Positions 1,880 through 20,065 of a DNA stretch of 24,000 bases are shown piece by piece. The notes beneath the pieces are model-generated. The model worked only from the letters and a program-made list of their open reading frames with translations, did no database searches and was not told where the DNA came from. This DNA comes from an uncultured Oscillibacter sp. (GTDB lineage Bacteria > Bacillota > Clostridia > Oscillospirales > Oscillospiraceae). Where the stretch lies: positions 1 through 24,000 of the forward strand of contig UQUC01000026.1 of NCBI GenBank assembly GCA_900544105.1, in the 5' to 3' direction. Made by a program: the position numbers and the translations under genes. Each line of letters opens with the position of its first letter. Position 1 is the stretch's first letter.

Positions 1880-3502
1880 TTACTCTACCTCCTGCTCTTC
1901 TGCCGCACAGGACCCATCCTGCAACTGGCATTCACCGTTGTCATCGTCCTCACGGACATAGTTGCTGAAGGCCAGCAGCGAGTCTTCCTGCGGCGCAAAC
2001 TCCGGCTTCATAGAGCAGACCGTTTCCCAGTGTACCTTCGGCTTCGAGAACGAAAGGAGCGACATATATCCCATCGCGTGAGGCGGCTTGTCGCAAGAAG
2101 GCTCCTCGGCAACAGGGACGCTCTCCGTCTGCATCGTGTAGACAACGAGAGCCGCAACCTTGTCGCTGTAAAGAGCCCGCGCACGCAGCCGTTCAAAGCT
2201 GTACCCGTTCCCCATGCGGCTCATGTCCTCCACCATCCGGTTCAAGCCCTCCGTTACGGCATTGGTAAAGCGGCGGTTGGGTTCAAAGTAATTGAAGATT
2301 TCCTCGTGCCACTTCCTCGTGAGGGTGTTCTTGGCCGAACGAAGGTCGTCAAACAGCTCCGGCTCCACCTCGAACCGCTTCTTCCATGCCTCGATTTGAC
2401 GGCAGCCGGAGGGAGGGATAAGCTCCGCCCATTCCTTGCAGTATGCCTCCGCCGTCTTGCGGTCAGGGGCGGTGTAGATGCGGTCAAAGCGTTCCTTGAT
2501 AAGCCGCAGATGGTTGAACTCAGGGAAAGTCGCGCAGATATTTGCCATTGCGCTGATACGCCTCTCACTCTTGGCGAGATTCTTGGCGTTGAACTTGAAC
2601 AGATAGGTGTTCGTCTGGGCGAGGTTCCGCACCGCAATCATGCGCTTCTTTGCGCCGCCCTCCGGCTCCGCTTGGATGAGGGCGCCGATATAGGCCATGA
2701 TTTTGCTGCGGGCCTTGGCGATTTTCTCATAGACGGACTGGCAGACATGGAACTTGTCCACGACGATGGCGGCATTGGGCAAGCACTCCTGCACATAAGT
2801 ACGGTAGCCACAGGACATATCCATCGTTACGACCTCGATATTGGTGTCGTAGCCGACCATGCTCTCAATGGCTGCAATGACGGTATCCTTCTTGTTATCG
2901 GGACACATCTCCAGCAGAACACGGTTCTCAATGTCTGTAAAGATGGCCCGCATATTATGGACAATGTGCTTTTCATCAATGCCCAATACGCGGGGAGCGA
3001 TAACAGGGCCATGGGCTGACGCCAACTCTTTGGAATACTCGTCAAAAATTTTGCCGATGATAGTGTCGGAATAGCCGTATTTCAGGGCGACTGTACTCAG
3101 CGGCTTGGTAAACGCCTCGTGTCTGATTTCGTCATAAAGCCGCCTTGTCAAATGCCGGCTCTCCATAATGTCCGGCGATGGCGGGGAAAAGGACCTTCCG
3201 CATTCGCTACAGATGTACCGTTGCACCGTCAGGTCTATATCGACCTTCGTGCGTCCGCTGTTGACATCGTGAATGCGGCGCGGAGCCCCTGTTTGGCCGT
3301 GTGCGTGAACGGCGGTACTGCCGCAGAAACGGCATTTTCGGTTTCGGTAGTCCTCCACATGGCAGGAGAACAGTAAGTAAGGATGCCCTGCCTTGGGCCG
3401 ATAGCAGGCATCTTCAATTATGCCGCGCAAATTCAGGTGCGGAATGGGAATGACCTCCTCCATATCATCCGGAGTCAGTCGAATGTGATTCACAGTCTTC
3501 AT
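1880..3502 (-). CDS. ISL3-family DDE transposase (540 aa)
   Basis: It has an N-terminal zinc-finger-like CRFCGS...CSECG. The DDE region shows LGIDEKH, VTMDMSCGY and TNAVTEGLNRMVEDMSRMGNGY, an ISL3-typical TNAxxEGxN motif. Start trimmed to ATG 3502 (MKTVNH), which has GAGAGG upstream. It has a roughly 90-aa acidic C-terminal tail beyond ...LRARALYSD. Confidence 0.85.
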   Translation of the reverse strand: MKTVNHIRLTPDDMEEVIPIPHLNLRGIIEDACYRPKAGHPYLLFSCHVEDYRNRKCRFCGSTAVHAHGQTGAPRRIHDVNSGRTKVDIDLTVQRYICSECGRSFSPPSPDIMESRHLTRRLYDEIRHEAFTKPLSTVALKYGYSDTIIGKIFDEYSKELASAHGPVIAPRVLGIDEKHIVHNMRAIFTDIENRVLLEMCPDNKKDTVIAAIESMVGYDTNIEVVTMDMSCGYRTYVQECLPNAAIVVDKFHVCQSVYEKIAKARSKIMAYIGALIQAEPEGGAKKRMIAVRNLAQTNTYLFKFNAKNLAKSERRISAMANICATFPEFNHLRLIKERFDRIYTAPDRKTAEAYCKEWAELIPPSGCRQIEAWKKRFEVEPELFDDLRSAKNTLTRKWHEEIFNYFEPNRRFTNAVTEGLNRMVEDMSRMGNGYSFERLRARALYSDKVAALVVYTMQTESVPVAEEPSCDKPPHAMGYMSLLSFSKPKVHWETVCSMKPEFAPQEDSLLAFSNYVREDDDNGECQLQDGSCAAEEQEVE

Positions 3503-3603
3503 CGTGGTATACCTCTCAAATTCATCAAAAATAATGTGCCGGGGAAATGTATTCAAATAATTGATGAAGACTACGCTATTTACTTTTGGTATACCGTGAC
3601 CAT

Positions 3604-3632
3604 AGAATAGCACAAATGTTCTGTTCGCGCAA
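3604..3632 (-). promoter_or_regulatory. Candidate sigma-70-type promoter for the transposase
   Basis: The minus strand reads TTGCGC - 17 nt - (TGC)TATTCT, with an extended -10 TGn, about 95 nt upstream of ATG 3502. Confidence 0.45.
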
Positions 3633-3690
3633 GGGGGTTGCAAAAATTTTCTGTTTTCGGTAGATTTTGGAATAAAAATGATGAATTATG

Positions 3691-3718
3691 TTGCGAATTG
3701 AAAAATGTGTGCTATAAT
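3691..3718 (+). promoter_or_regulatory. Candidate sigma-70-type promoter for the hsd operon
   Basis: TTGCGA (3691-3696) - 16 nt - TGCTATAAT (extended -10; TATAAT at 3713-3718). It is divergent from the transposase promoter. Confidence 0.55.
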
Positions 3719-3749
3719 GAAAATGTCGAAGACTACAGAGAACTTCGAT

Positions 3750-3852: not shown

Positions 3853-5634
3853 ATGACGACCAGTAACGAACGCATTGCATCTACCGGCAAGAATATACAG
3901 GAAAAAGCCAACTTAATTTGGAATGTGGCAAACACCCTCTTTGGCGCGTTTAAGCCCCATGAGTACGGACTCGTCATCCTGCCGATGGCGGTCATCAAGC
4001 GGTTCCACGACTGCCTGCTGCCGACCCATCAGGCAGTGCTGGACAAGTACAAGGAGGTGCAGCACCTCGCCGTGAAGGAGGGCTTCCTCTGCGCCGCCTC
4101 TGGCTACCAGTTCTATAACATCAGCCCATTTACCTTCGAAACGCTGAAAGCGGACCCCGAAAACATCAATGAGAATTTCCGCGCTTTCCTGAACGGCTTT
4201 TCTGACAATGTGCAGGACATTTTGGCGCGGATGAACTTCCACGCCCAAATCGACCGCATGGAGGAGGCCGGTCTGCTGTATCAGGTTATCGTGGACTTCT
4301 GCTCCGAGCAGGGCGATATGCGCCCCGAAAAAATCAGCGCAGTGGATATGGGCTATATCTTCGAGAACTTGGTGCAGCGGTTCTCCGAGTCCTACAACGA
4401 GGAGGCCGGAGCGCACTTCACCAGCCGCGATATTATCTATCTCATGTGCGACCTGCTGGTCAGCAATGCAAAATTTGATGGGGACGGCATCTCCAAGACG
4501 GTTTACGACATGACGATGGGCACCAGCCAGATGCTCACCTGCATGGAGGAACGGCTCAAGCAGTTGGACGCCGATGCGGATGTCACCTGCTTCGGGCAGG
4601 AGCTGAATCCCTTTACGTTTGGCATCGCCAAGGCGGATATGCTCATTCGCGGCGGCGACCCCGACAATATGCAGTTTGGCAACACGCTGGACGATGATAA
4701 ATTCAGCGGGTATCAGTTCGATTACGAAATTTCTAACCCGCCCTTCGGTATCGACTGGAAGCGAGAGGCCCCCAAGGTCGAGGCGGAGCATAAAAAGGGC
4801 GGCGCGGGGCGTTTTGGACCCGGTCTGCCCAGCAAGAGCGATGGACAGATGCTGTTCATGCTCAACGGACTTGCCAAGCTGAAGCCGGATGGCCGCATGG
4901 CTATCATCCAAAACGGCTCGTCCCTGTTCACCGGCGATGCCGGCTCCGGGCAGAGCGAGATTCGTCGCTATCTCATTGAAAACGACTGGCTGGACGCTAT
5001 TGTTCAGTTGCCCAACGACAGCTTTTATAATACCGGAATCGCCACTTATATTTGGATTATCACCAAGGACAAGCCAGAGGAGCATATCGGCAAGGTGCAG
5101 CTTATCGACGCCAGCAAGTGCTATGAGCCCCGCCGCAAATCCATCGGTAACAAGCGTGTGGACATCACCGATGTCTGCCGCGAGCTTATCGTCAAGGCCT
5201 ACGGCGCATACGCGGACCACACCTACCAGCGGGAGCTGGAGTCCGGCGCACATATCGTCTGCAAGAGCCGCGTGCTGGACAGCGTCAGCCTTGGCTACAA
5301 CAAAATCGTAGTAGAAACGCCGGAGATGGACGAGAACGGGCAGCCGGTACGCAAGCGTGGAAAGCCCGTGGCGGATACCTCCAAGCGGGACACGGAGAAT
5401 GTGCCGCTGGACGAGGACATGGACTCCTATCTGAGCCGTGAGGTACTGCCCTATAACCCCCATGCATGGATTGACAGGAGCAAGACCAAGGTGGGCTATG
5501 AAATCCCCTTCACCCGCACCTTCTATGAATACAAGCCCATTGAGCCTGCCGCAGAGATTGCCAAGCGCATCGAGGCCCATGAACAGTCGTTGATGCAGAA
5601 GCTCCACGACCTGTTCGGGAAGGATGGTGAGTGA
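3853..5634 (+). CDS. hsdM: Type I restriction-modification system, DNA methyltransferase subunit M (593 aa)
   Basis: The N-terminus LIWNVANTLFGAFKPHEYGLVILPMAVIKRF is HsdM-N-like. There is a SAM motif DMTMGTSQM and the catalytic NPPF in EISNPPFGIDWK. It is followed by hsdS. The start could be ATG 3844 or 3853; 3853 has better AAGGA spacing. Confidence 0.9.
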   Translation: MTTSNERIASTGKNIQEKANLIWNVANTLFGAFKPHEYGLVILPMAVIKRFHDCLLPTHQAVLDKYKEVQHLAVKEGFLCAASGYQFYNISPFTFETLKADPENINENFRAFLNGFSDNVQDILARMNFHAQIDRMEEAGLLYQVIVDFCSEQGDMRPEKISAVDMGYIFENLVQRFSESYNEEAGAHFTSRDIIYLMCDLLVSNAKFDGDGISKTVYDMTMGTSQMLTCMEERLKQLDADADVTCFGQELNPFTFGIAKADMLIRGGDPDNMQFGNTLDDDKFSGYQFDYEISNPPFGIDWKREAPKVEAEHKKGGAGRFGPGLPSKSDGQMLFMLNGLAKLKPDGRMAIIQNGSSLFTGDAGSGQSEIRRYLIENDWLDAIVQLPNDSFYNTGIATYIWIITKDKPEEHIGKVQLIDASKCYEPRRKSIGNKRVDITDVCRELIVKAYGAYADHTYQRELESGAHIVCKSRVLDSVSLGYNKIVVETPEMDENGQPVRKRGKPVADTSKRDTENVPLDEDMDSYLSREVLPYNPHAWIDRSKTKVGYEIPFTRTFYEYKPIEPAAEIAKRIEAHEQSLMQKLHDLFGKDGE

Positions 5635-5635
5635 T

Positions 5636-6943
5636 ATGACGCCTACTGTGGGTTATACGGAGATGAAGGACAGCGGTATCGAGTGGGTGGGCATGATTCC
5701 GAAAGATTGGGACATCAACATTCTCTTCCAACTTGTTTCTCAGGTAAAAAACAAAAACAAAGATTTGACAGAAACCAATTTATTGTCTTTGAGTTACGGG
5801 AAAATCAAAAGAAAAAACATCGACCATACAGATGGTTTGATTCCTGCTTCATTTGACAGTTACAACATTATTGATACCGGGGACATTGTTCTGCGACTCA
5901 CTGACCTTCAAAATGACCAAACGAGCCTTCGTGTTGGACGCTCAACCGAAAAGGGAATTATTACTTCTGCTTATATAACATTGCGCCCCGTCAATCTCAA
6001 AACATCAAAATTTCTTTACTATTTGCTTCATGCGTTTGACATCAGAAAAGGTTTTTATGGAATGGGGGCAGGCGTGCGGCAAGGACTTACCTATGATGAG
6101 GTCAAAGTTCTGAAACTACCGCTTCCATCCATATCAGAACAAACCGCCATCGCTACATATCTCGACACACAGTGTGCCAAAATTGACGAAATTATCGCCG
6201 AAGCCAAGGCCAGCATTGAGGATTACAAGCAGTGGAAGGCATCCATCATCTACGAAGCCGTCACCAAGGGGATTGACCCCAATGCAGAGATGAAGGATAG
6301 CGGGATTGAGTGGGTTGCCAAGATTCCTGCACGGTGGCATAAAGGAAGAGTCAGCCAAGTTGCAAATGCTTATAATGGGGACCGTAGCAGTAACTATCCA
6401 AGCGGGAGCGATATTGTTAGCTCCGGAATATCGTTCTTGACATCTAACAATTTAGGCCAGATTAAACTTAATACGGATATTCAAACAAACAAGTTTATTA
6501 CATCAGAGAAATACCATTCCCTTAGAGGGGCAAAACTGCAAAAAGACGATATTGTATTTTGCTTACGCGGGAGTGTCGGAAAATGCTCTATAAACAAAAC
6601 GCTAACAGAAGGAAGTATTGCTTCATCCCTCATCTTGATTAGGCCTGTTGGAATAAATCCTGATTACCTTAATTATGTACTTCAAAACAGTGCCATAACC
6701 GAAACAGCAGTTATTTCGGCGATTGGTATTGGTTCGCTCAACCTTTCGGCGGAGAATATCATGAGTTTTTCTATTCCACTTCCTTCATTGGATGAACAGA
6801 AACGTATTGCCCAGTATTTAGATGAAACCTGTAGTTACCTTGATGACATTGTGTTAGAAAAACAACTCTTAATTGCAGACCTCGAATCTTACAAAAAATC
6901 TCTAATCTACGAAGTCGTAACTGGGAAAAGGAGGGTGTGCTGA
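5636..6943 (+). CDS. hsdS: Type I R-M specificity subunit S with two target-recognition domains (435 aa)
   Basis: An internal duplicated conserved segment is present: EMKDSGIEWVGMIPKDW and EMKDSGIEWVAKIPARW. Conserved helical spacers are ...QWKASIIYEAVTKG... and ...YKKSLIYEVVTGKRRV. Two AT-rich variable blocks (TRDs) lie between the GC-richer conserved blocks. The start could be 5624 or 5636. Confidence 0.85.
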   Translation: MTPTVGYTEMKDSGIEWVGMIPKDWDINILFQLVSQVKNKNKDLTETNLLSLSYGKIKRKNIDHTDGLIPASFDSYNIIDTGDIVLRLTDLQNDQTSLRVGRSTEKGIITSAYITLRPVNLKTSKFLYYLLHAFDIRKGFYGMGAGVRQGLTYDEVKVLKLPLPSISEQTAIATYLDTQCAKIDEIIAEAKASIEDYKQWKASIIYEAVTKGIDPNAEMKDSGIEWVAKIPARWHKGRVSQVANAYNGDRSSNYPSGSDIVSSGISFLTSNNLGQIKLNTDIQTNKFITSEKYHSLRGAKLQKDDIVFCLRGSVGKCSINKTLTEGSIASSLILIRPVGINPDYLNYVLQNSAITETAVISAIGIGSLNLSAENIMSFSIPLPSLDEQKRIAQYLDETCSYLDDIVLEKQLLIADLESYKKSLIYEVVTGKRRVC

Positions 6944-7494
6944 TGGGTGTAAATATTGATGCAAAGGATAATGCGGCTACGGTCAAAGTTATACCCTACA
7001 AGTCTATATGCGTATTTGTCTTAATTGTTGACGGAGTTTTATTATTTGCCCCAGAAAATGTTGTTGCTGCGCTGGGGCTTAACCAAGTGCGTGAAACCAT
7101 CAAACCCTACTTAGGCATTCTGTTTCTCTGCGCGGCTGCGATTTTGCTTATTGATGTTGGCGGCGGCTGGATAAGGCGTAAAGTAACCGTTTCGCGGTAT
7201 CGTGGAAAAAACGCAAAACGAATACTGGATAGATTGAGTAAACGTGGCAAACAGGTTGTACGAAGGATGTATGAGTCAGAAAGCCATACGGCATACCTGT
7301 CAATCACGGATGCGACAGCAACTTATCTGCAGCGTTCGTCTATTATTGGGCAAACAACCGCAAGTAACAACGGCGAGTATTTTGACCGCTATTTACAGCC
7401 GTGGGTCGTTGAATATCTTGATAAGCACCCAGATTATCTGAGGGAAATGCCTGAGCCAGATGAAGGTGCATTTGAGTGTGAAGGAGAATTCTAA
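6943..7494 (+). CDS. 2-TM membrane protein, superinfection-exclusion (SieB-family)-like (183 aa)
   Basis: The ATG overlaps the hsdS stop (TGATG), with GGAGGG 8 nt upstream. There are two N-terminal TM helices (ICVFVLIVDGVLLFA; ILFLCAAAILLIDVGG). These are followed by a basic linker and a soluble C-terminal domain (...LSKRGKQVVRRMY...YLSITDATATYLQRSSIIG...YLQPWVVEYLDKHPDYL). This architecture matches my recollection of Pfam SieB-family proteins. The family call is recall-based, not searched. Confidence 0.5.
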   Translation: MGVNIDAKDNAATVKVIPYKSICVFVLIVDGVLLFAPENVVAALGLNQVRETIKPYLGILFLCAAAILLIDVGGGWIRRKVTVSRYRGKNAKRILDRLSKRGKQVVRRMYESESHTAYLSITDATATYLQRSSIIGQTTASNNGEYFDRYLQPWVVEYLDKHPDYLREMPEPDEGAFECEGEF

Positions 7495-7495
7495 A

Positions 7496-7948
7496 ATGCC
7501 AGATAGTACAAAGCCAAATGTGACCCATCTCGGATATATCCAATCAACTATTACAAGAATGGGGCAAAACGCATTTCAAGCAAAAGCGTGGTGCATCACC
7601 ATCATCACCGCACTCCTCGTTTTTTATTTGGAAAAGGCATCTAATGCCTCAAAATACGCAACTATCTATATTGCACTCGGAGTGGTTGCGCTGTTCTGCG
7701 CTCTTGATACATATTATCTTTACCTTGAGCGCGGCTACCGTAAGCTCTACAGAGTCGCAGCAAAACTGGAAGTAGAATCCGAGCCGCTTCCCGATTTTGA
7801 AATGCAAATCCCCCAAAATGCGCGTGGTATTGTGCAATATGGTAAGGCGTTTCTTTCGGTATCTACAGGCCTGTTCTATGGCGTAATCATGCTTTTGCTA
7901 ATCATCTTGTGGCTGTGTACTAATGCTGCAGATACACCTTCCGTGTAA
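7496..7948 (+). CDS. Small 3-TM membrane protein (150 aa), candidate membrane effector
   Basis: ATG 7496 lies 8 nt after GAAGGAG and 1 nt after the previous stop. Hydrophobic helices are AWCITIITALLVFYL, YATIYIALGVVALFCALDTYYLYL and LFYGVIMLLLIILWLC. No enzymatic motif is visible. Confidence 0.7.
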   Translation: MPDSTKPNVTHLGYIQSTITRMGQNAFQAKAWCITIITALLVFYLEKASNASKYATIYIALGVVALFCALDTYYLYLERGYRKLYRVAAKLEVESEPLPDFEMQIPQNARGIVQYGKAFLSVSTGLFYGVIMLLLIILWLCTNAADTPSV

Positions 7949-7966
7949 GAGAAAGGAGGATGCTTT

Positions 7967-8554
7967 ATGGCGTCTAAGGTTTTTGTGTCCTATAAGTTTG
8001 CGGACAATAATGTGGCGTATTTATACTCACCACTTTATTCCCCCTATTCATATACCAGCACAACCGCACGTTCATATGTGGATGATTTTAAGCGCCGAGC
8101 CGAAAATGAAGGGTGCATAGTTTATAAGGGTGAGAGGGCGGATGAGGATTTGTCTTATCTCAGTGATGATACGATTTGGCAAAAGCTGAGAGACCGGATT
8201 TATGACAGCACCGTTACCGTAGTATTTATTTCTCCTAATATGCGGGAAAAATACCGGAGTGAACGCGACCAATGGATTCCTTGGGAAATTGCTTTTTCCC
8301 TGCGTGAAACTACGAGGAACGACAGAACAAGTCACTCGAATGCGTTGATATTCGTTATTCTGCCGGACAGAAACAATAGTTATGACTACTATTCCACAAT
8401 GAGGCATTTCAATATTGTTGCCAGCAATATTCGGAATGGTTATGCCGAGGTTGCCTATTGGAGTAACTTTGTAACAGATATACAAGGGCATATTAGTAGA
8501 GCTCTTTTACGGAAGCAGATAGTCTCGCCGAATGAGGTAGTAAAGACAGTGTAA
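7967..8554 (+). CDS. TIR-like domain protein (DUF1863 / ThsB-like), 195 aa
   Basis: It opens with [12 protein letters not shown], the TIR beta-A pattern 'hFhSY'. It also has [10 protein letters not shown]...[15 protein letters not shown], matching the 'S.W(I/V).WEI' motif typical of MTH538/DUF1863 TIR-like proteins. AAGGAGG sits upstream of the ATG. Confidence 0.7.
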
Positions 8555-8560
8555 GGAGGT

Positions 8561-8580
8561 GCCCGATAATGCCCGATAAT
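8561..8580 (+). repeat. Perfect 10-bp tandem duplication (GCCCGATAAT x2) spanning the hsdR start codon
   Basis: Read directly: GCCCGATAAT GCCCGATAAT G. The hsdR ATG (8569-8571) is formed across the junction of the two copies. Confidence 0.9.
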
Positions 8581-11500
8581 GAAAAGCAATTTGAACAGGA
8601 TATTGAGACCTTTCTGATTTCCCCTGCCGGTGGCTGGCAGAAGGCCTCAGACGCCGGCTACCGTGCGCCGGAAAGCGCGGGTATGGCGCTGGATATCCGC
8701 ACCCTGACGACCTTCGTAAAAGCCACACAGCCCGTGGCGTGGCAGCGGCTGGAGAAGCAGAGCGACGGCAACTCTGAAATGAAATTCTACAAGGCGTTCG
8801 AAAATGCCGTGGAGAATGACGGCCTTATTTCTGTGCTGCGGCACGGCTTTAAGCACCGTGGCATCGACTTCCACGTCTGCTACTTCAAGCCGGAGTCCAC
8901 GCTGAACGATGTGTCGTTGCAGCACTATCAGCAGAATATCTGCCAGTGTATCCGCCAGTGGCACTACTCGGAAAGCTGCGGCAACAGTGTGGACATGATG
9001 CTGGCGGTCAACGGTATCCCTGTTATCGCCATCGAACTGAAGAACCAGCTTACGGGGCAGAACATCGACAACGGCAAAAACCAGTGGATGTTCTACCGCG
9101 ACCCCAAGGAGCCGGTCTTCCGCCTGAACCACCGCATTTTGGCGTTTTTCGCGGTGGACCTGTACGAAGCCGCCATGACTACAAAACTGGATGGTGCCAA
9201 GACCTTTTTCCTGCCCTTCAATCAGGGCAGCAACGGCCCCGGACAGAACGGAGGCGCAGGCAATCCGACCAACGCAGACGGCGATTATGTGACATCTTAT
9301 CTTTGGAAAGAGGTGCTTCAGAAGGATAGTCTGCTGGACATTTTGCAGAAGTTCATCAGCTTCCAAGTGAAGAAGGAGAAGATTCGGCTGAAGGACGGCT
9401 CCGAAAAGGAAATCCTCAAGAAGTCCGTTATTTTCCCGCGTTATCATCAGATGGATGTTGTCCGAAAGCTGGTGGGTGATGTGCGGCAGAACGGCTCCGG
9501 CCACAACTACCTCGTACAGCACAGTGCCGGCTCCGGCAAGTCCAACTCTATCGCTTGGACGGCCTACCGGCTGGCAAGTCTTCACGATGCGGACAACAAG
9601 CCCATTTTCAGCTCCGTGGTCATTGTGACAGACCGCACCGTGCTGGACGCCCAGCTTCAAGAAACGATTTCCGGCTTTGACCATACGCTCGGCTCCGTTG
9701 TGACCATCGGCGAGAAGATGAACTCCCGCGACCTGCGGGATGCGCTCAACGCCGGCAAGCGTATCATTGTGACCACGCTGCAGAAGTTCCCCGTTATCTA
9801 TGAGGAAGTGGACGATACAAAGGGTAAGGCGTTTGCGGTCATCGTGGACGAGGCCCACAGCAGCCAAACGGGGCACAGTGCCATGAAGCTGAAAATGGCA
9901 CTGGCGGATACCCATGACGCGCTGAAGGAATATGCCGATATCGAGGGCAAGGCGGAGGACGAGATGGAGGACACCGAGGACAGCCTTGTGCGGGAGCTTA
10001 TCACCCACGGCAAGCACAAGAATCTGAGTTTCTTTGCCTTCACCGCCACGCCGAAGAAAAAGACGCTGGAGATGTTCGGCGAGGAACACGCAGACGGCAC
10101 ATTCCATCCATTCCATATCTACTCCATGCGACAGGCCATAGAGGAGGGCTTTATCCTCAATGTGCTGGAGAACTACACCACCTATAAAACCTGCTTCCAA
10201 ATCGCCAAGAATACGCCGGACAACCCCGAAGTGCCTACCATCAAGGCAATCAAGACCATTCGGCGCTTCGAAGAACTGCATCCTCATAACTTGCAGCAGA
10301 AAGCGGCCATCATCGTAGAGACCTTCCGTGATGTGACAAAGCGCAAAATCGGTGGCAGGGGCAAAATGATGGTGGTCACGGCGTCCCGCTTGGCGGCGGT
10401 GCGTTACTACCATGAAATCAAAGCGTATTTAGATGCCAACCACTATGATGATGTAGAAATCCTTATCGCATTCTCCGGAAGCATCCGCGACCCCGAAGAG
10501 AAAAGCGGCCACGAATACACCGAAAGCGGCATGAACATGGACCGTGACGGTAATCACATCTCCGAGAGCCAAACCAAGCAGGTGTTCCACGACGAGGGCG
10601 ATGTGCTTATCGTAGCGGAAAAATATCAGACCGGCTTTGACGAGCCGCTGCTGCACACGATGATTGTGGATAAGAAACTGCGGGATGTGAAGGCCGTGCA
10701 GACTCTGAGCCGCCTGAACCGTACATACCTCGGCAAGGAGGACACCTATATCCTCGATTTCGTGAACACCAAGGAGGAAATCCTCAAGGCGTTCCAGCCG
10801 TATTATCAGGAGACAAGTCTGTCCGAGGAAATCAATATTGACCTTATCTACAAGGCGCAGAAGCAGCTCCGCGACTTCCGCGTGTATAATAACGACGATG
10901 TGGAAGCTGTTAGCAAGATTTATTTTTCGCCGGAAGCCAAGAAGGTGCAGACCACACAGGCAAAAATCTCCAATGCGCTGCTGCCCATCGCACGAGCCTA
11001 CAATCAGTTAAGCAAGGACGACAAATACCAGTTCAGGCGCACCATCCGTTCCTTTGTGAAGTGGTATAACTACATCTCCCAGATTGTGCGGATGTTTGAT
11101 AAGGCACTCCACAAGGAATATCTGTTCTGTTCCTATTTGGCACGTCTGCTGCCGGCAGAAACGGCTGCTCCGTGGGACTTGGAGAACCGCGTAAAGCTGG
11201 AGTATTACCGGCTGGAAAAGACCTTTGAGGGAGCCATAGAGTTGGAGGACAAGGATGTTCCGCTGGAACCTGAGCGGACAAAGAAGGCAGTCAATATGAA
11301 CACCAAGAAAGACCCGCTGGAAACGGTTATCGAGGCCATCAACGAGGTGTATAAGGGTTCCTTTACAGAAGCAGACCGCGTCCTCATTGGTACGCTGCGT
11401 GAAAAGTTGCTGGCAGACAAGAAACTCCGAAAAGCCGCAAAATCCGATGGACAACAGATTTTCGAGAAAAATGTGTTCCCCAAGGTGTTCAACGACACCG

Positions 11501-11646
11501 CGCAGGCATCCTATATCGAAAGCACGGAAACCTACACCAAACTCTTTGAAGATGGTGCCAAGTACCGCGCAATTATGACGGCACTGGCACAGGAACTATA
11601 CCGCGAAATGCGGAACGAGCGGGAGGATGACCATGCCAAGGGCTAA
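8569..11646 (+). CDS. hsdR: Type I restriction endonuclease subunit R (1025 aa)
   Basis: The N-terminal PD-(D/E)xK-like nuclease region is ...[20 protein letters not shown]. Helicase motif I is [14 protein letters not shown] and motif II is [12 protein letters not shown] (DEAH). The later motif [17 protein letters not shown] is present. AAGGAGG lies 9 nt upstream. Confidence 0.9.
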
Positions 11647-11800: not shown

Positions 11801-11806
11801 AAAAAG

Positions 11807-11839
11807 AATCTGGCGTCCAAACAGGATGCCAGATTTTTT
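11807..11839 (+). terminator. Rho-independent terminator ending the hsd operon
   Basis: AATCTGGCGTCC-aaaca-GGATGCCAGATT forms a 12-bp stem with one G-U pair, followed by TTTTTT. Confidence 0.8.
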
Positions 11840-11866
11840 CGTACTTTTTGTTCACTCGGAGGAAAA

Positions 11867-12114: not shown

Positions 12115-12366
12115 ATGTGGGAAATCTGGGAAGGGATCAATCTGGTTGGCTTCCCCAAGGGCGCACCGAATCCCCGCCGGGTGGAGGACCCGCTGAAATG
12201 GATCCTCTGGCGGCTGGGAAGGATCGGCCCCTATTTTCAGGCGGATCCTCAGCCGAAAAAGGCGCTGCTGGAGTCTGCAAGGAAATATCAGGGGCGGCTT
12301 GACGACTGGATGAACGAACAAAGGTGCAAACAAGAGCGGTTTTATAACGGGGAGGATCTCCAATGA
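12115..12366 (+). CDS. Hypothetical small protein (83 aa from first ATG), possibly the 3' remnant of a longer gene
   Basis: The track ORF 11965-12366 begins at a TTG inside the 56-bp repeats, which is implausible. The first in-frame ATG is 12115. The stop overlaps the next start (ATGA at 12363-12366). Confidence 0.4.
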   Translation: MWEIWEGINLVGFPKGAPNPRRVEDPLKWILWRLGRIGPYFQADPQPKKALLESARKYQGRLDDWMNEQRCKQERFYNGEDLQ

Positions 12367-14543
12367 AAATGGAGCAGGCATGCCGGTTCCGGACGGATGA
12401 AGCCGGATATATGGTCTGCGCCAGATCCCAGGGTCTGACGGCGGATAATGAAAACAACCTCGGCTATTTCAACAGTACCATGACGTCCTTGTTTGAAAAG
12501 GACGGATCCGGCCCGAGAATGGGTCAGTCTATCCTCAGCTACGCTGTCAGCGAGGAGAACGGCGGCAGGCGGCTGGAGGAGGACCCGTTTGTTGCGGAGC
12601 TTTTCCGGTATCTGGCATCTGCCGCCCCGGAGGAGCGCCGCCAGATGCTGCTGGATATGCAGTATATTTTGGGGGAGCTGGTGCCGCTGGAGTATGCGTC
12701 ACTGGAGATGATCGCCACCGCATATCACATGCGGAAGATGAACGATGGAAACCGGCCGGAAAATGACGTGTATGACCGCGTGGTGGGGAATCTGCTGCTT
12801 TGCGGCAGGGTTCCGTCGGCAAACCAGGAGACGGTGAACAAGCTCCTGATCTGGATGCTGAAAAGGCAGAACGCTGCGCTGCCCAAGCGGATTATGGAGC
12901 TGTCTGTGGACCGCTGCGTCAAACAGGTGCAGGCGGATGCGGCAGGCGGGCGGGAGCTCTGCGACTGTGTTTGCCGTCTTTTGCAGTACAGCAGAAGCGC
13001 TGAGCAGCTGGAGCTGCTGCAGAAAACGGTGAAAACCTTCGATGTGCGCTATGCCGGGCTTGTGCATGCCCTGCTGCGCGGCATCTTTTCGGACCGGGCA
13101 TGCAGCATTGACCCGCAGACGGCGTGCAGTCTGATCCCGGAGATGCTGCGCTCCGGCGATGAAATGCTGACCGGGGATTGCGTGGAGCTGACCACCTGCC
13201 TGGATGCAGGGCAGTGCCGGCAGCTGGCAGAGAGCATTCTGCGGCATGTGGGGCTCCGCCAGATGACGCTGATGGAGCAGAACGTTCTGGCCAATATCCT
13301 GGACGAGCTGAGCCGGTCCGGCGGTGTGCTGGGAAAAGAGAGCTGTGAGATCCTGGACCGCAATTCCTGCGTTTATAACGGCAGACTGCTGGATGCCTGC
13401 GTGGGCTATATGGTGCAGGTGCGGCTGCGGCAGGAGCTTCCCGTGGAGGAGCGCTGCGCGCTGCTGGCCGGGCTGGAACGGGAGTATCCGGCCCTGTATG
13501 ATGACGTTGCGGCTGCGCTGAAGAGCGGCGGCAGCATCCTGTGGAAGAAATATCAGATTCACAAGCATCTGCAGAATTGCAGATGCTATGAGGACATTGT
13601 GGCTGCGCGCCGGAGCTATCAGGGGGCGTCCCCCATGGACGATTTTGAACAGGAGTGTGTTGCTCTTTGGATGCAGCTCCTGCGCAGGGATGTCTATCAG
13701 GGGATGCCGCTGAAAAACCTGGTGCCGCAGATGGGACGCGCAGTCGATGCGCTGCCCAGAGGCGTATTCTCGCTGGAGGCCGCTCATGAGCTGCAGCGGC
13801 GGCAGCGGGCCTATTTCTGGAGCTGCATGACCTATCGCACAATGATGGACTATGTGTTGGACGGCGCGCCCAGCAGCAATGTGCAGGCGCTGCTTCAGAC
13901 CCGGGACAGCGGAGCGGATGGCAATAAGCTGCACTTTCTGGATGCCGTGTGGCAGCTGTACCGGGATCCGAGCCGGACTGAGCCGATGACAGAGCTGGTG
14001 CTGGACGGACACCTGCCTGCCAGGGACAGGGAGGAGATCTGCAATCAGCTGCTGCCGCTGGCGGCAAAGCTGAAAGCTGCCTCCAACCAGGCAATTTTCG
14101 CATGGGATCTGATGCTTCTGTCCTGCAGCCGGGTGGAAGCCGGACGGGTCGTTTATGACTGCGGCAGTCTGATTAAGAAAATTGAGGGGATTCCGGCGCT
14201 GAAAATGGGAGTTTCCGGCAGCCAGTCTCTCCAGCTGGAGCATTCCGTCATACTGCGGGACGAGAAGGTGCGCAGCGACCTGCGCAAGGCCGCCGGCCGC
14301 GGCGACAGTCTGCTCAGTGAGCAGCTGGAAAAGACGCTGAAGGCGTGGGGAAAGGCGCGCAGGCCCGACAATGGCCACGGGAAAAGACTGAGCTCTGATC
14401 CGCCGGCCGCGGAAAAGAAGGGGTTATTCTCTATTTTCGACCGCAGCGACAGAGGCGGGCGGACGGAGAAGTCGGACCGGGGCTTTATTTTTGACGACTA
14501 CGACGGCGACTCGGGAAAAAGAGGAAGGAATAGGAGAAGATGA
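12363..14543 (+). CDS. Large uncharacterised, probably all-alpha protein (726 aa) with a charged, low-complexity C-terminal tail
   Basis: GGGGAGG lies 9 nt upstream and G/C third-position bias is strong. The composition is rich in L/A/R/E/C. I see no Walker A or other enzymatic motif. The tail is ...DRSDRGGRTEKSDRGFIFDDYDGDSGKRGRNRRR. Confidence 0.75.
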   Translation: MKMEQACRFRTDEAGYMVCARSQGLTADNENNLGYFNSTMTSLFEKDGSGPRMGQSILSYAVSEENGGRRLEEDPFVAELFRYLASAAPEERRQMLLDMQYILGELVPLEYASLEMIATAYHMRKMNDGNRPENDVYDRVVGNLLLCGRVPSANQETVNKLLIWMLKRQNAALPKRIMELSVDRCVKQVQADAAGGRELCDCVCRLLQYSRSAEQLELLQKTVKTFDVRYAGLVHALLRGIFSDRACSIDPQTACSLIPEMLRSGDEMLTGDCVELTTCLDAGQCRQLAESILRHVGLRQMTLMEQNVLANILDELSRSGGVLGKESCEILDRNSCVYNGRLLDACVGYMVQVRLRQELPVEERCALLAGLEREYPALYDDVAAALKSGGSILWKKYQIHKHLQNCRCYEDIVAARRSYQGASPMDDFEQECVALWMQLLRRDVYQGMPLKNLVPQMGRAVDALPRGVFSLEAAHELQRRQRAYFWSCMTYRTMMDYVLDGAPSSNVQALLQTRDSGADGNKLHFLDAVWQLYRDPSRTEPMTELVLDGHLPARDREEICNQLLPLAAKLKAASNQAIFAWDLMLLSCSRVEAGRVVYDCGSLIKKIEGIPALKMGVSGSQSLQLEHSVILRDEKVRSDLRKAAGRGDSLLSEQLEKTLKAWGKARRPDNGHGKRLSSDPPAAEKKGLFSIFDRSDRGGRTEKSDRGFIFDDYDGDSGKRGRNRRR

Positions 14544-15589
14544 GCGACAGCGTGATGTATCCGGAAGCCGGCCGCTGGGTCAACAGCTACCTGGTGGGCG
14601 CCAACGCCTACAAAATTATGTCGACCCCCGAGGAGGCACAGCAGCTGCTGCTGGACGATAGCGAGGACTTTCTGCAAACAGGGACGGAGCGCCACTATAT
14701 TCAGGTGCGATGCCGGAACGAGAATAAACCGCTGTGGCTGGTGCCGTTCCGGGTCAAGCGGGAGGAGTTGCTGCGGGTATCCGACGTGCTGGAGCAGATT
14801 CAGATGGGACGAATCCTGCGGGAGGGCTTTTTCTGGCCGTTCGATCTGGTCCGGAGCGATGAAATGCAGGGATATGTGCTGCATCCCTTCAGCATGGATG
14901 CGTATCCCTCTGTCCGCCGGTTTTTGCCCAGCTCTGACACGCCCAGGTGGACCATTGCCGTCCATCTGTTCCGCAGGATCGGGCAGCTGCACCGTGAGGG
15001 CCTGACGCTGAACGGCTTTGGCAGGGATCAGGTGCGCGTGGAGTATGGGACAAACCAGGTGTATCTGGTTCCGGGTGAAACAATTTCTCGGGTTTCGCAG
15101 CTCGGCGCGGCCTTTCGCGGCGACTTTCTGTCTGTGCCGCAGGTGGTGGAGCAGCAGCTGGAGAAAAATGGCATCGTGCTGGACGGGTGCGTGCGCGACA
15201 TATTCTCGGCAGCGGTAATTGCCTTTTATCTGCTGTTCTATACCCATCCTTTCATCGGGGAGGAGTACAGCCACCTGATGCGGGAGCAATATCTGGAATA
15301 TTTTCAGAGTCACCCGGTGTTTCTGTTTGACGCCGGAGGGCACAATGGAACGGGACATCATCAATTCGGCGCGGAGATAACGGCCCAATGGTGGAGAGCG
15401 CAGCCGGAGCTGCGGCAGCTGTTTTCAGATTTCTTTGCGGCGCTGTGTGCAGGACAGATCGATGAAAATGCCCCGTGGAATGACACGGAGAACTGGATCC
15501 GCTGCCTTCTGGAGGATGCAGCCGTGAACGATAACGATAAGAGCCGCACAAGCTACGAGCTGGAGCTGGAAAAATTCCATCTGGTCTGA
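14540..15589 (+). CDS. Protein-kinase-fold protein with degenerate catalytic motifs (putative pseudokinase), 349 aa
   Basis: The ATGA overlap couples it to the previous gene. The C-lobe-like signature is DGCVRDIFSAAVIAFYLLFYTHPFIGEEY (compare 'D.wSlG..ly.ll.G..PF'). The catalytic-loop position reads LHREGLTLNGFGRDQVRV rather than H-R-D-x-K-x-x-N. The DFG position reads VYLVPGET. Confidence 0.6.
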   Translation: MSDSVMYPEAGRWVNSYLVGANAYKIMSTPEEAQQLLLDDSEDFLQTGTERHYIQVRCRNENKPLWLVPFRVKREELLRVSDVLEQIQMGRILREGFFWPFDLVRSDEMQGYVLHPFSMDAYPSVRRFLPSSDTPRWTIAVHLFRRIGQLHREGLTLNGFGRDQVRVEYGTNQVYLVPGETISRVSQLGAAFRGDFLSVPQVVEQQLEKNGIVLDGCVRDIFSAAVIAFYLLFYTHPFIGEEYSHLMREQYLEYFQSHPVFLFDAGGHNGTGHHQFGAEITAQWWRAQPELRQLFSDFFAALCAGQIDENAPWNDTENWIRCLLEDAAVNDNDKSRTSYELELEKFHLV

Positions 15590-15599
15590 GGGGTAAGGC

Positions 15600-16562
15600 A
15601 TGAGAGAGATATTGAAAGAAGTAGTCAACGAGCAGGGATTACAGATTTTACAGACGCCCGCGATGCTGCGGGCAAAATTGGAAGAAAAAGGCGACGACCG
15701 CAGCGATGCGCTGCTGTGGGAGCTTATCCTGACGGCCTGCCCCAGCGTGGCGGATGTGGCCGTGCAGCCGGAGCTTTCCCGCGCGGAGGTCAACACGGTG
15801 ATCGGCGCGGTGACCAAGACCACCATGCTGTCTGCCTCCCTGGTGAGAAGGATGGTCCAGCAGCTGCTGGATGCCGCGCAGGTGAAGCTATCGCCGGTGC
15901 CGCGGTTTCTGATCCTCGCCAACGGCAGGCACGGCGGAGCGTGCTCGGTGGAGGATCAGCGGGAGGGCGAGGTCCTGCAGGCGGCTCTTGCGTCGCTGGA
16001 GACGGACACGGAAACGGCCCTCAGCGACCTGCAGACCCTGTCCCAGGCCGGGAACGCCTATGCCAGCTACCAGCTGGGCCTGTACTACAGCAGCCACAAG
16101 ATGGAGGGGATGGATACCCAGCAGGTGGCGCAGAACTTCTTCAACTGCGCCGCGCAGCAGGGCTATGGCCCGGGCTATGGCGCCCTGGCGGATTATGCAC
16201 TGAACGGGCGGCGAAAGAATCTTCGCCGGGCGGCCCAGTATTTTGGGTATCCCACATCCCTGGCGGGCCGGGACGGCAAAAGGTGGAGCAAAAACGCCGC
16301 GGACCTGTTGGCCTATCGGGAGCAGAACGTCCGCAGCGGAAGACAGACCCTGCTGCTGGTGGTGGTCACGCTGGTGATAACGCTGCTGGCGGGTATTTGC
16401 AGTCCTCGCGAATTTGCGATGGCGGTTCCGGCGCTGGTGCTGGAGCTTGGCTGCGGGGTTCGCTGCGTGCTGGGACTGGTTATGGACCCCTACGGCTCCT
16501 ACCGCTTTGTGTATGCCGCCCTGGCTGCCTGCTGGCTGCTGAACATCCTATGCCTGGTCTGA
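15600..16562 (+). CDS. Sel1/TPR-like repeat protein with C-terminal transmembrane helices (320 aa)
   Basis: Sel1-like repeats are visible: AGNAYASYQLGLYYSS..., AAQQGYGPGYGALADYALNG.... C-terminal hydrophobic helices are TLLLVVVTLVITLLAGI, FAMAVPALVLELGCGVRCVLGLV and FVYAALAACWLLNILCLV. Confidence 0.6.
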   Translation: MREILKEVVNEQGLQILQTPAMLRAKLEEKGDDRSDALLWELILTACPSVADVAVQPELSRAEVNTVIGAVTKTTMLSASLVRRMVQQLLDAAQVKLSPVPRFLILANGRHGGACSVEDQREGEVLQAALASLETDTETALSDLQTLSQAGNAYASYQLGLYYSSHKMEGMDTQQVAQNFFNCAAQQGYGPGYGALADYALNGRRKNLRRAAQYFGYPTSLAGRDGKRWSKNAADLLAYREQNVRSGRQTLLLVVVTLVITLLAGICSPREFAMAVPALVLELGCGVRCVLGLVMDPYGSYRFVYAALAACWLLNILCLV

Positions 16563-16575
16563 GGGGAGGCACAGT

Positions 16576-17313
16576 ATGAGTACATCTTATTTCATGAACA
16601 TCGGCGCGTATGTGGCCACGGTGATTTTTGCGGCTGCGCGTCTGGCTGTGGGAGGAGTGCTGACCGAGCCCGGCGCGCTGATCCCGGCACTGCTGGTGCT
16701 GGGGATCCTGCTTATCCCCTTGGCGTCTAAGGGTGGATTTCAGAAGAGTACCTATCAGACCGGGCCAGCCTTTGGGCTGGCATGGGGCGTCCTTTATGCC
16801 TTTCTGACACCTGTTGTCCTGGCTGCGGTATCCTCCGGATGGAGCGACCTTTGCTCCCGCGTGGGAAAGCTTACGCATCTGGGCTGGCCTATGGTGGCCG
16901 GGGCGGTGCTGCTGGCTGCGCTGACGCTGGAAAAAGGCGCGCAAAAGCAAAGTATATATCGGGCGGCCCGGCTTCTGGTATGGGCGGCCTACATCCTGCT
17001 GCTGAACTGGCGCGCCGGCGCCATGCGGCTGGATGCGGATGATTGCTGGCTGATCAGCGTGCTGGGCGTTCCGGTGGCGGGCGCGGTGTATGAGCTGCTG
17101 GAGCAGAAGGGTCAGGTCACTGCCAAATGGTATCATGCGCCGTTGGCGCTTCTGGGCGTTTCCTGGTGTGTGCTGACGGTATTCCTATCCGTGCGATACA
17201 GGGCGGCAAACGCAATGGAGATCTACCCGAAGGAGTACAGCACGGTTTGCAGGCTCTGCAATGTGGTGCCGCTGCTGGCTGCGGTGCTTGCTGCGCTGTG
17301 CGTGATATTTTGA
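16576..17313 (+). CDS. Polytopic integral membrane protein (245 aa)
   Basis: GGGGAGG lies 6 nt upstream. The sequence consists almost entirely of hydrophobic helices separated by short loops. No motif recognised. Confidence 0.7.
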   Translation: MSTSYFMNIGAYVATVIFAAARLAVGGVLTEPGALIPALLVLGILLIPLASKGGFQKSTYQTGPAFGLAWGVLYAFLTPVVLAAVSSGWSDLCSRVGKLTHLGWPMVAGAVLLAALTLEKGAQKQSIYRAARLLVWAAYILLLNWRAGAMRLDADDCWLISVLGVPVAGAVYELLEQKGQVTAKWYHAPLALLGVSWCVLTVFLSVRYRAANAMEIYPKEYSTVCRLCNVVPLLAAVLAALCVIF

Positions 17314-17331
17314 CATAAGGAGGAGAGAGAT

Positions 17332-18477
17332 TTGAAGCTTGATATCAGGACCTTGAGCGCGTCTCTGGTGGCCGGATTTGTGAGCTGGTACCTGTGCGCG
17401 GGGATTTACAATAAGAACGCGGATTCCATGTGGACGCCGCTGCTGATGGCGCTGTTGTTTCTTGTGCTGGCGGCGATAACCTGCCTGGTGGTGCACCTTA
17501 CAACGGGGCGGCGCACGAGATTTATGCAATTCAAGGGTATCGGTCAGATCATGACCATGCTGGCTGTGGGCCTGGTGGCGCTGATGACGCTGATTTATGG
17601 GAACTGCCCGGAGCTGTTCCAGATAGATGGCAATGCGACGTATTACTACAACAGCGTTGATCGAGACGGAGAAAAGATGGTGACGGGGATCAGCGAACTT
17701 TCTTACCATATGGATGAGGATACCTATCGCCGGGCCTATCAGCAGTGCGACCGGATCGTTCAGGAGGTGGTAAGCGGGGCGGCGGGCCTTTCTGCGCGAG
17801 AGGCGGAGCTGCATGCCTATCGCTACGTCACCGGCCACTGTGTCTACGACCTGTCCACGCCGTATTGCGGGACGCCCTACGGCGCGCTGGTGGAAGGCCG
17901 GGCCAAGTGTGACGGAACCGGAAAAACCATGCAATGGATCCTGGAGCAGATGGGAATCGTTTGCCTGTCGATTTCCGGCGCGCCCTTGGACGGCGGGAAC
18001 GGGCACCAGTGGAATGTGGCGGAAATTGACGGCATATTTTATGATCTGGATGCCACCGCTGACCTGGGAAACCAGGGGGACAAGCTGCTGTATGGCCGGT
18101 TCAATGTGGATAACCACCTGATTCGGGACCTCTATCCCATCGGAGACGGCTATCTGTCCTGCTTCACTATTCCGGGTACCGACAGCATGTCGGGCAGCTA
18201 TCATGCCCGCAATCATACGCGGGTGGAAAGCGACGCCGACTGCGGGCCGATTTTGGCGCAGCAGTTTTCACAGGTGATACAGAAGAACGGCGGCAGCTTT
18301 GCCATCCAGCTTGCGCAGAGTGCGCAGGTGGATGAACTGAGCCGGATCTTCGGAAAATGGGAGGGCGCCGAGCGCTTCCTGAAGGAGTATGGCGTATCGC
18401 TGCAGGGCTTCGGCTATTACTCGCTGACGCAGCCCGAGACAAACGTCTATCAGTTCACAGTGTACCGGGATTCGTGA
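17332..18477 (+). CDS. Membrane-anchored transglutaminase-like cysteine protease superfamily protein (381 aa)
   Basis: The TTG start lies 8 nt after AAGGAGG. There are three N-terminal TM helices. The Cys-His-Asp core pattern is EGRAKCDGTGKTMQWILEQMGI ... GHQWNVAEIDGIFYDLDAT, typical of the transglutaminase-like fold. Confidence 0.7.
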   Translation: MKLDIRTLSASLVAGFVSWYLCAGIYNKNADSMWTPLLMALLFLVLAAITCLVVHLTTGRRTRFMQFKGIGQIMTMLAVGLVALMTLIYGNCPELFQIDGNATYYYNSVDRDGEKMVTGISELSYHMDEDTYRRAYQQCDRIVQEVVSGAAGLSAREAELHAYRYVTGHCVYDLSTPYCGTPYGALVEGRAKCDGTGKTMQWILEQMGIVCLSISGAPLDGGNGHQWNVAEIDGIFYDLDATADLGNQGDKLLYGRFNVDNHLIRDLYPIGDGYLSCFTIPGTDSMSGSYHARNHTRVESDADCGPILAQQFSQVIQKNGGSFAIQLAQSAQVDELSRIFGKWEGAERFLKEYGVSLQGFGYYSLTQPETNVYQFTVYRDS

Positions 18478-18481
18478 GGAC

Positions 18482-18518
18482 AAAAAGGACTCCTGCCAAG
18501 GCGGCAGGAGTCCTTTTT
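18482..18518 (+). terminator. Rho-independent (bidirectional) terminator ending the six-gene operon
   Basis: AAAAA-GGACTCCTGCC-aaggc-GGCAGGAGTCC-TTTTT forms an 11-bp GC-rich stem flanked by A- and T-runs. Confidence 0.85.
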
Positions 18519-18562
18519 GTGTCCCCTAAAAGTGCTTTGACCTTTGGGGCTTTTTGACAAGA

Positions 18563-18596
18563 AACAGGGGTCCCGCAGTTCTGCGGGACCCCTGTT
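18563..18596 (-). terminator. Terminator hairpin downstream of gdhA
   Basis: AACAGGGGTCCCGCAG-tt-CTGCGGGACCCCTGTT is a near-perfect 16-bp inverted repeat located about 30 nt after the gdhA stop. The minus-strand downstream tract is only moderately U-rich. Confidence 0.7.
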
Positions 18597-18628
18597 GGTT
18601 CTATTTGGATGATATCCTATCTTTCGGC

Positions 18629-19981: not shown

Positions 19982-20065
19982 AATAGTTGCCTCCTCAAAA
20001 ATTGTTCCAAGATTGTTCAAAATCGAATGGGTAGATGAAATTTGCTCATACCCCCATCCGTTCTG

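Follow-up and report, generated by a model that had tools for sequence, protein, structure and literature searches.

The window analysed here is 24,000 nucleotides long (positions 1 to 24,000 of the forward strand of contig UQUC01000026.1, assembly GCA_900544105.1, from an uncultured Oscillibacter sp.) and contains a Type I restriction-modification (R-M) operon in which three open reading frames, ORF1, ORF2 and ORF3, lie between hsdS and hsdR. The locus is best explained as a stacked defence operon, hsdM-hsdS-sieB-thsF-thsB-hsdR, in which a Type V Thoeris system and an independent SieB gene each act separately from R-M, a reading to which we assign a probability of roughly 0.78. By sequence comparison, ORF2 and ORF3 are a two-gene Type V Thoeris system (ThsF plus ThsB), a known kind of system described in 2024-2025. 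A preliminary description of the same DNA had recognised no named defence system in this gene combination, a statement that no longer holds. Its suggestion of a defence or abortive-infection role is supported, and all of its protein classes (a SieB-like protein with two transmembrane (TM) segments, a 3-TM protein and a TIR-like protein) were upheld.

In the mechanism proposed, the Type I enzyme would work independently as a first, DNA-targeting layer, as the comparative data suggest. Upon phage infection, ThsB would turn NAD+ into a cyclic ADP-ribose (cADPR) isomer, most likely 3'cADPR if the B. thuringiensis system is a guide. This signal would bind basic pockets between the ThsF protomers of a ring-shaped membrane oligomer, and ThsF would then open or disrupt the membrane, stopping phage replication by abortive infection. 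ORF1 would act alone as an abortive or exclusion factor on the model of P22 SieB, with which macromolecular synthesis is halted midway through a superinfecting phage's lytic cycle. Embedding in the hsd operon would provide both co-expression and co-transfer.

Identity of the embedded Thoeris pair

Type V is one of the Thoeris types, V to XI, defined by Yirmiya et al. (bioRxiv, December 2025, 10.64898/2025.12.03.692087). Its ThsB makes 3'cADPR upon infection, cells that contain the B. thuringiensis system are poisoned by this molecule, and the validated Type V system defends B. subtilis when cloned as a TIR-containing operon (10.64898/2025.12.03.692087). The reference used here was the ThsB sequence of B. 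thuringiensis DAR 81934 from Table S1 of that work, for which the exact protein was then found in the database; the gene that follows it encodes 141 amino acids (aa) and was assigned as the ThsF effector by consecutive IMG gene numbers. ORF2 aligns with this validated ThsF (L052:4773-5198; related loci are given as L numbers) over its full length at 30% identity (BLASTP, E=1e-19), and hhalign gives a probability of 99.4% over 130 columns (E=2e-21).

Both proteins also match PADLOC PDC-M50A, ORF2 with four models (best E=1.5e-31) and the validated ThsF with E=1.8e-48. PDC-M50 is a two-family candidate, FAM_00415>>FAM_00416, and the source of the PDC candidates was the 'guilt-by-embedding' survey of Payne et al. 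2024 (10.1101/2024.01.29.577857), which collected the genes found inside BREX, DISARM and Type I R-M operons. PDC-M50 resembles the pair in the window in its embedded origin as well as in sequence, but it includes no SieB member and has candidate status only. A literature search for "PDC-M50" gave no results, and the supplement of Payne et al. gives family identifiers only.

ORF2 is predicted to span the membrane with three helices. Three hydrophobic segments lie at about residues 27-45, 51-77 and 117-148, and the AlphaFold2 monomer (predicted local distance difference test (pLDDT) 81, predicted template modelling (pTM) score 0.72) contains helices at 9-46, 50-88 and 122-145. Residues R21, K30, W32, D71, E78 and R82 are conserved in the family, and the basic ones among them (R21, K30 and R82) would suit the basic inter-protomer pockets of the ring-shaped homo-oligomer predicted for ThsF. 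At E<=1e-3 this very large family comprises 5,083 cluster representatives; ORF2 belongs to no Pfam or NCBIfam family, and its PHROGs matches are to families of unknown function only.

ORF3 matches Pfam ThsB_TIR (E=5.5e-7, 30.4 bits against a cut-off of 21.2) and PADLOC ThsB (E=1.2e-52). It is 50% identical (E=2e-44) to a TIR protein labelled 'DUF2270 - Type V' in Table S1 (10.64898/2025.12.03.692087), and it matches the Protein Data Bank (PDB) entry 9vyl, 'cyclic ADP-D-ribose synthase TIR1', with E=2e-42. Since the WIPWE motif is conserved with 9vyl, the catalytic glutamate is predicted at residue 107; Glu107 aligns within this motif both with 9vyl and with the Table S1 TIRs. ORF3 has no TM segment and no NCBIfam match, and in PHROGs it matches unknown-function families only. 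In one metagenome thsB is truncated to 102 aa with the rest of the operon intact (L069:9472-9780), which may be a natural inactivation of the Thoeris sensor.

The pair thus resembles Type V Thoeris in combining a TIR protein with a 3-TM effector of ~140-150 aa, in the full-length homology of that effector to ThsF and in the 50% identity of the TIR protein to author-labelled Type V TIRs. It differs in the clade of its TIR protein, in its reversed gene order (thsF then thsB) and in sitting within a Type I R-M operon, to whose genes it is translationally coupled.

ThsF-family genes adjoin at least four TIR clades, the validated clade included (L016, L051), and these ThsF-TIR neighbours span Clostridia, Bacilli, Proteobacteria, Poribacteria and Cyanobacteria. 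Pairing with several TIR clades is the behaviour that should be expected of a shared Thoeris effector. At the plasmid loci H1 and H2, a ThsB of the validated clade is present with no adjacent ThsF.

The case of cyanobacterial ThsF-like genes without a TIR partner was dropped, a convergent FFSFHY-type TIR gene being found directly after the ThsF-like gene in four loci (L014, L017, L022 and L025); no TIR was detected in the other loci of the set (L014, L017-L030, at ~9350-10450 in each). These proteins keep the DxYYLYLER motif and differ in their C-terminal half, and their genes are preceded by one for a NUDIX protein of ~179 aa (PF00293, E=3e-12). Such loci may represent a form of Thoeris that includes its own nucleotide hydrolase.

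Sister operons, variable slots and exchange

The embedded arrangement recurs in L001, L031-44, L054-58 and L067-71, and across the sister loci the order hsdS-thsF-thsB is constant while the adjoining slots vary. The slot between hsdS and thsF is empty in L001, L037 and L054-58, holds SieB in the window and in L031-36, L043/44 and L048, holds an unrelated pair of genes of 213 and 87 aa in L038-42, and holds an unrelated 392-aa gene in L002. The slot between thsB and hsdR carries a 422-aa gene in L054/55, a GNAT-like gene in L057/58 and an FRG/PDC-S15 gene in L002. Linkage to hsdS extends beyond a single kind of operon, since every sampled ThsF relative at least 48% identical directly follows hsdS, in three different hsd backbones: one with HsdM at least 85% identical to that of the window, the L057 type (HsdM 58% identical), and L056 (HsdM 25% identical, with the order hsdR-hsdM-hsdS).

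Several of the slot genes had no Pfam or PADLOC matches, namely L002:429-1607 (392 aa), L038:1345-2292 (213 + 87 aa), L054:7174-8442 (422 aa), L056:7150-8118 (322 aa) and L057:4413-4775 (120 aa). Because of their position in hsd operons, these are candidate uncharacterised defence genes.

ORF1 matches Pfam PF14163 SieB (E=2e-20, 73.3 bits against a cut-off of 26) over model positions 2-147 of 147 and has two hydrophobic segments; it has no match in NCBIfam or PHROGs, and a PDB sequence search gave nothing significant. It resembles SieB of phages P22 and lambda in this full-length match, in its small size and two N-terminal TM segments, and in the phage or mobile-element contexts of its relatives; it differs in being chromosomal, within the hsd operon of a Clostridia-type bacterium. 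Homologues 57% identical to ORF1 occur without TIR or ThsF in eight loci of another conserved element, where they adjoin a phage-type helicase, and on a viral contig a SieB-like gene lies just ahead of the terminase and portal genes. Compared with the window, L060 is 100% identical at the HsdS C-terminus and 94% in ThsF but 66% in SieB, a pattern that indicates a swap of the SieB allele. The varying content of the slot, the solo homologues, the viral-contig relative and the allele swap all argue that ORF1 was acquired independently, and the best reading is that it is a factor of phage origin which causes exclusion or abortive infection as a single gene. The three ORFs had been described as one unit, a view that gives way to these comparisons: in sister operons thsF-thsB is found with ORF1 missing or with unrelated genes in its slot, and relatives of ORF1 occur alone.

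Base composition places the boundary of the low-GC block further upstream than the embedded genes themselves. The G+C content at third codon positions (GC3) is 0.76 in hsdM and 0.71 in hsdR, and is 0.43 in hsdS, 0.40 in ORF1, 0.44 in ORF2 and 0.44 in ORF3. Because the GC3 of hsdS is as low as that of the three ORFs, the compositional boundary is the start of hsdS. The same pattern is seen in high-GC hosts, where hsdS and the embedded genes hold a GC3 of ~0.4, flanked by hsdM and hsdR at ~0.7. The AT-richness of the cassette relative to hsdM and hsdR, noted in the preliminary description, is therefore real, and the foreign composition of the inserted genes is supported by GC3, but the low-GC block also takes in hsdS. 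Later insertion, as then proposed, fits ORF1 only; for the cassette as a single insertion it was ruled out, since hsdS is equally low in GC and none of the related hsd operons sampled lacks thsF-thsB.

Sliding nucleotide identity shows a mosaic with a breakpoint near 8100-8300, inside thsB. Among the sister loci hsdS is the most variable gene, with 35-63% aa identity in the closest loci and mosaicism by target recognition domain; HsdR is 97-99% identical at the aa level to that of L031-36. From these comparisons we infer that hsdM and hsdR, being conserved, provide the homology arms through which the low-GC core (hsdS, cargo genes, thsF and thsB) is exchanged. The locus is a clear case, found in nature, of a Type I R-M operon as the scaffold on which further defence genes are gathered and exchanged. 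The tandem duplication at 8560-8579 is shared with L031 and L043, which have SieB, and is missing from L001 and L037; recombination or slippage may have left it as a scar.

Independence from the restriction enzyme and other readings

Several points weigh against the stacked operon of separately acting parts. The evidence throughout is computational and drawn from sequence. Pfam DUF2270 (PF10028) matches neither ORF2 nor the validated ThsF, and matches 8 of 143 members of the ORF2 family weakly (best E=9e-4); since the DUF2270 label is not reproduced for either protein, the homology of ORF2 to ThsF rests on their direct comparison. The TIR clade of ORF3 differs from both validated Type V ThsBs, so that its signal is one that we infer, and BLASTP of ORF3 against the B. 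thuringiensis ThsB finds no similarity beyond the WxxxE motif. An exclusion role for SieB proteins of the Firmicutes branch is extrapolated from P22 SieB. The strict linkage to hsdS, moreover, is not obviously explained by pure hitch-hiking and may reflect functional coupling.

There is precedent for defence genes embedded in Type I R-M operons in PrrC, in TgvAB and in the 'guilt-by-embedding' survey (10.1101/2024.01.29.577857), and the preliminary description had drawn an analogy with the first of these. In a PrrC-like guard, the embedded genes would be kept silent by the Type I complex and would fire when it is inhibited by an anti-restriction protein of a phage, for example Ocr or ArdA. The position of the genes inside an hsd operon, as for prrC, is in keeping with such a role, as are the linkage of this Thoeris clade to hsdS in every sampled case across the three backbones and the fact that PrrC is almost exclusively embedded, according to Payne et al. 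(10.1101/2024.01.29.577857). However, none of the three ORFs has a match in Pfam, NCBIfam or PADLOC to PrrC/RloC, which combine an ABC-ATPase-like N-domain with an anticodon nuclease. The locus of the validated ThsB-ThsF pair has UvrD-helicase-like and OLD/TOPRIM-ATPase-like neighbours and no hsd genes, and the system defends as a cloned operon in B. subtilis. Nor were hsd genes found beside the more distant ThsF-TIR pairs of L003-L010 and L051 by tblastn with the Hsd proteins of the window. Because the ThsF-TIR pair occurs, and was validated, away from hsd genes, the guard analogy is unsupported, and we consider a guard very unlikely here. TgvAB, another system lying within a Type I R-M operon, does not depend on restriction by HsdR for its action. 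PrrC in EcoprrI and TgvAB in VPI-2 are alike to the window in having genes between hsd genes that are probably co-transcribed, but neither PrrC nor the GmrSD-like TgvAB has any sequence relationship to the ORFs of the window; and whereas PrrC is physically controlled by its R-M enzyme, Thoeris needs no such dependence.

Coupling could instead be peculiar to the hsdS-linked clostridial clade of Type V Thoeris, which would be wired to the Type I enzyme so that ThsB senses R-M inhibition (by ArdA or Ocr) or HsdR activity, with the SieB-like protein as a modulator. The hsdS linkage leaves some room for such coupling; we regard it as very unlikely, no more probable than the guard. If true, it would mean a restriction guard of the PrrC kind that works through TIR signalling. 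The locus in any case offers a natural operon for asking whether embedded systems merely co-travel or cooperate with R-M.

The translational coupling of ORF1 on both sides, and the preservation of the SieB-ThsF-ThsB order even in loci where SieB has diverged to 66%, might point to an integrated three-component system, with the SieB-like protein as a second signal-responsive membrane effector or as a protein that regulates or anchors ThsF/ThsB. Thoeris operons that contain two effectors are reported as rare cases (10.64898/2025.12.03.692087). Such integration seems unlikely in view of the sister operons that lack SieB or have unrelated genes in its slot, the 57%-identical homologues living without TIR or ThsF, the SieB-like gene beside terminase genes on a phage contig, and the swapping of SieB alleles independently of their flanks in L060. 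The name 'SieB' is also not found in the text of the TIR survey or in its supplementary tables, two of which were available in part. A different doubt concerns the type rather than the number of components: the same two-gene architecture might belong to another Thoeris type or use another signal, either through a SLATT effector (Type VII, canonical cADPR) or through a ThsB that makes 2'cADPR, His-ADPR or another molecule. A SLATT effector was the first lead for ORF2, and there is a weak match to the PADLOC model for reverse transcriptase (RT)-associated SLATT (RTasSLATT, E=0.057) and a marginal SLATT_6 match in 1 of 143 family members (E=0.0077); the distinctness of the TIR clade of ORF3 from the validated ones leaves further room for a different product. 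The lead was abandoned, since no SLATT Pfam model matches ORF2 or 20 diverse relatives and ORF2 aligns over its full length to the validated ThsF, and ORF3 resembles the Type V TIRs of Table S1, not those of Type VII. According to Ofir et al., the ThsA-activating isomer is a product of B. dafuensis TIR1 and TIR2; if 9vyl is B. dafuensis TIR1, a link that we make by name only, this close relative of ORF3 would produce that isomer, a point against the present reading. Of the alternatives weighed, this one appears the least probable.

Layout, transcription and surroundings

The six genes of the stacked operon follow one another in one contiguous order on the + strand, and the operon appears to end with a small ORF after hsdR (Table 1). 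The preliminary description had the coordinates of the three tightly packed, same-strand ORFs between hsdS and hsdR exactly, and the junctions are as it gave them. The hsdS stop and the ORF1 start overlap in TGATG at 6941-6945; the ORF1 TAA (7492-7494) is separated by 1 nucleotide from the ORF2 ATG at 7496; the 18-nucleotide spacer between ORF2 and ORF3 contains AAGGAGG upstream of the ORF3 ATG at 7967; and the ORF3 TAA (8552-8554) immediately adjoins the GGAGG, a Shine-Dalgarno sequence, that precedes the hsdR ATG at 8569. These junctions confirm the tight coupling of the operon, and the co-transcription that had been proposed is consistent with the promoter and terminator scan.

Table 1. Features of the operon and its borders, in window coordinates.
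Feature	Position	Strand	Description
ISL3-family transposase	1880..3643	-	directly upstream of the operon
promoter candidate	3691..3718	+	sigma-70-like, upstream of hsdM: TTGCGA, 16-nt spacer, TG-TATAAT
hsdM	3853..5634	+	Type I R-M methyltransferase subunit; N6_Mtase E=5.6e-52, HsdM_N E=1.5e-19; alternative upstream ATG at 3748
hsdS	5636..6943	+	specificity subunit; Methylase_S E=1.8e-18; first gene of the low-GC central block
ORF1 (sieB)	6943..7494	+	SieB-family 2-TM protein, 183 aa; variable slot between hsdS and thsF
ORF2 (thsF homologue)	7496..7948	+	3-TM membrane effector of Type V Thoeris (by homology), 150 aa
ORF3 (thsB)	7967..8554	+	predicted TIR-domain sensor and signal synthase, 195 aa
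10-bp tandem duplication	8560..8579	+	TGCCCGATAA x2; spans the hsdR start codon
hsdR	8569..11646	+	Type I restriction/translocase subunit; HSDR_N, ResIII, SWI2_SNF2 and T1R_D3-like matches
small ORF, 57 aa	11627..11800	+	overlaps the hsdR 3' end; predicted to be the final gene in the operon
intrinsic-terminator-like hairpin and T-run	11803..11849	+	16-bp stem; closes the operon

The best promoter-like match agrees with the consensus at 10 of 12 positions and has an extended -10, and is a consensus match only; the hairpin, placed by the scan at 11803-11839, is the sole strong terminator candidate on the + strand between 3800 and 12400. With a promoter upstream of hsdM, a terminator after the 57-aa ORF and nothing convincing found by the scan between them, a single transcript from hsdM to the terminator is plausible. 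All three embedded ORFs are conserved at the protein level across many independent contigs, and for this reason are taken to be real genes. The 57-aa ORF has an equivalent of 55-63 aa directly after hsdR in every related locus that extends past hsdR. Its one match, to RepB-RCR_reg (a plasmid RepB regulatory protein), is weak (E=1.3e-3), and it could encode a small DNA-binding regulator of the operon.

At least 1,000 public contigs contain the exact cassette, and 2,392 indexed collection blocks have an identical copy of the ORF2 sequence. 'Hypothetical protein' is the label in every source that names the proteins of the cassette, and the assignment of Type V Thoeris and SieB would fill this annotation gap in an apparently common, gut-associated, Clostridia-type lineage.

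The ISL3 transposase gene (DDE_Tnp_ISL3) stands at the same position in L031-36 and L067-71; it and small helix-turn-helix genes travel with the operon, and the outer flanks vary between contigs. Directly downstream of the operon in the window, at 12363-20038 on the + strand, are six tightly packed ORFs (726, 349, 320, 245, 381 and 494 aa) with a GC content of ~0.60. These have no Pfam match and a single marginal PADLOC match, to a PtuA-like AAA protein (E=0.005). Within the extent of the loci, the first four are kept beside the operon in L067 and L069-71, and not in L068. There, the operon lies beside ArdA-like, DUF3801, ParB_N and DNA-methylase genes (L068:408-1206 and 14243-16335), and such surroundings suggest that its carrier is a conjugative or integrative element with an anti-restriction protein of its own. 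In two other loci (L067:85-1980 and L069:85-1980) a gene of the DO-GTPase2 family (PF19993) precedes the ISL3 transposase at a distance of a few genes, and the wider region around some carriers of the operon may be a defence island.

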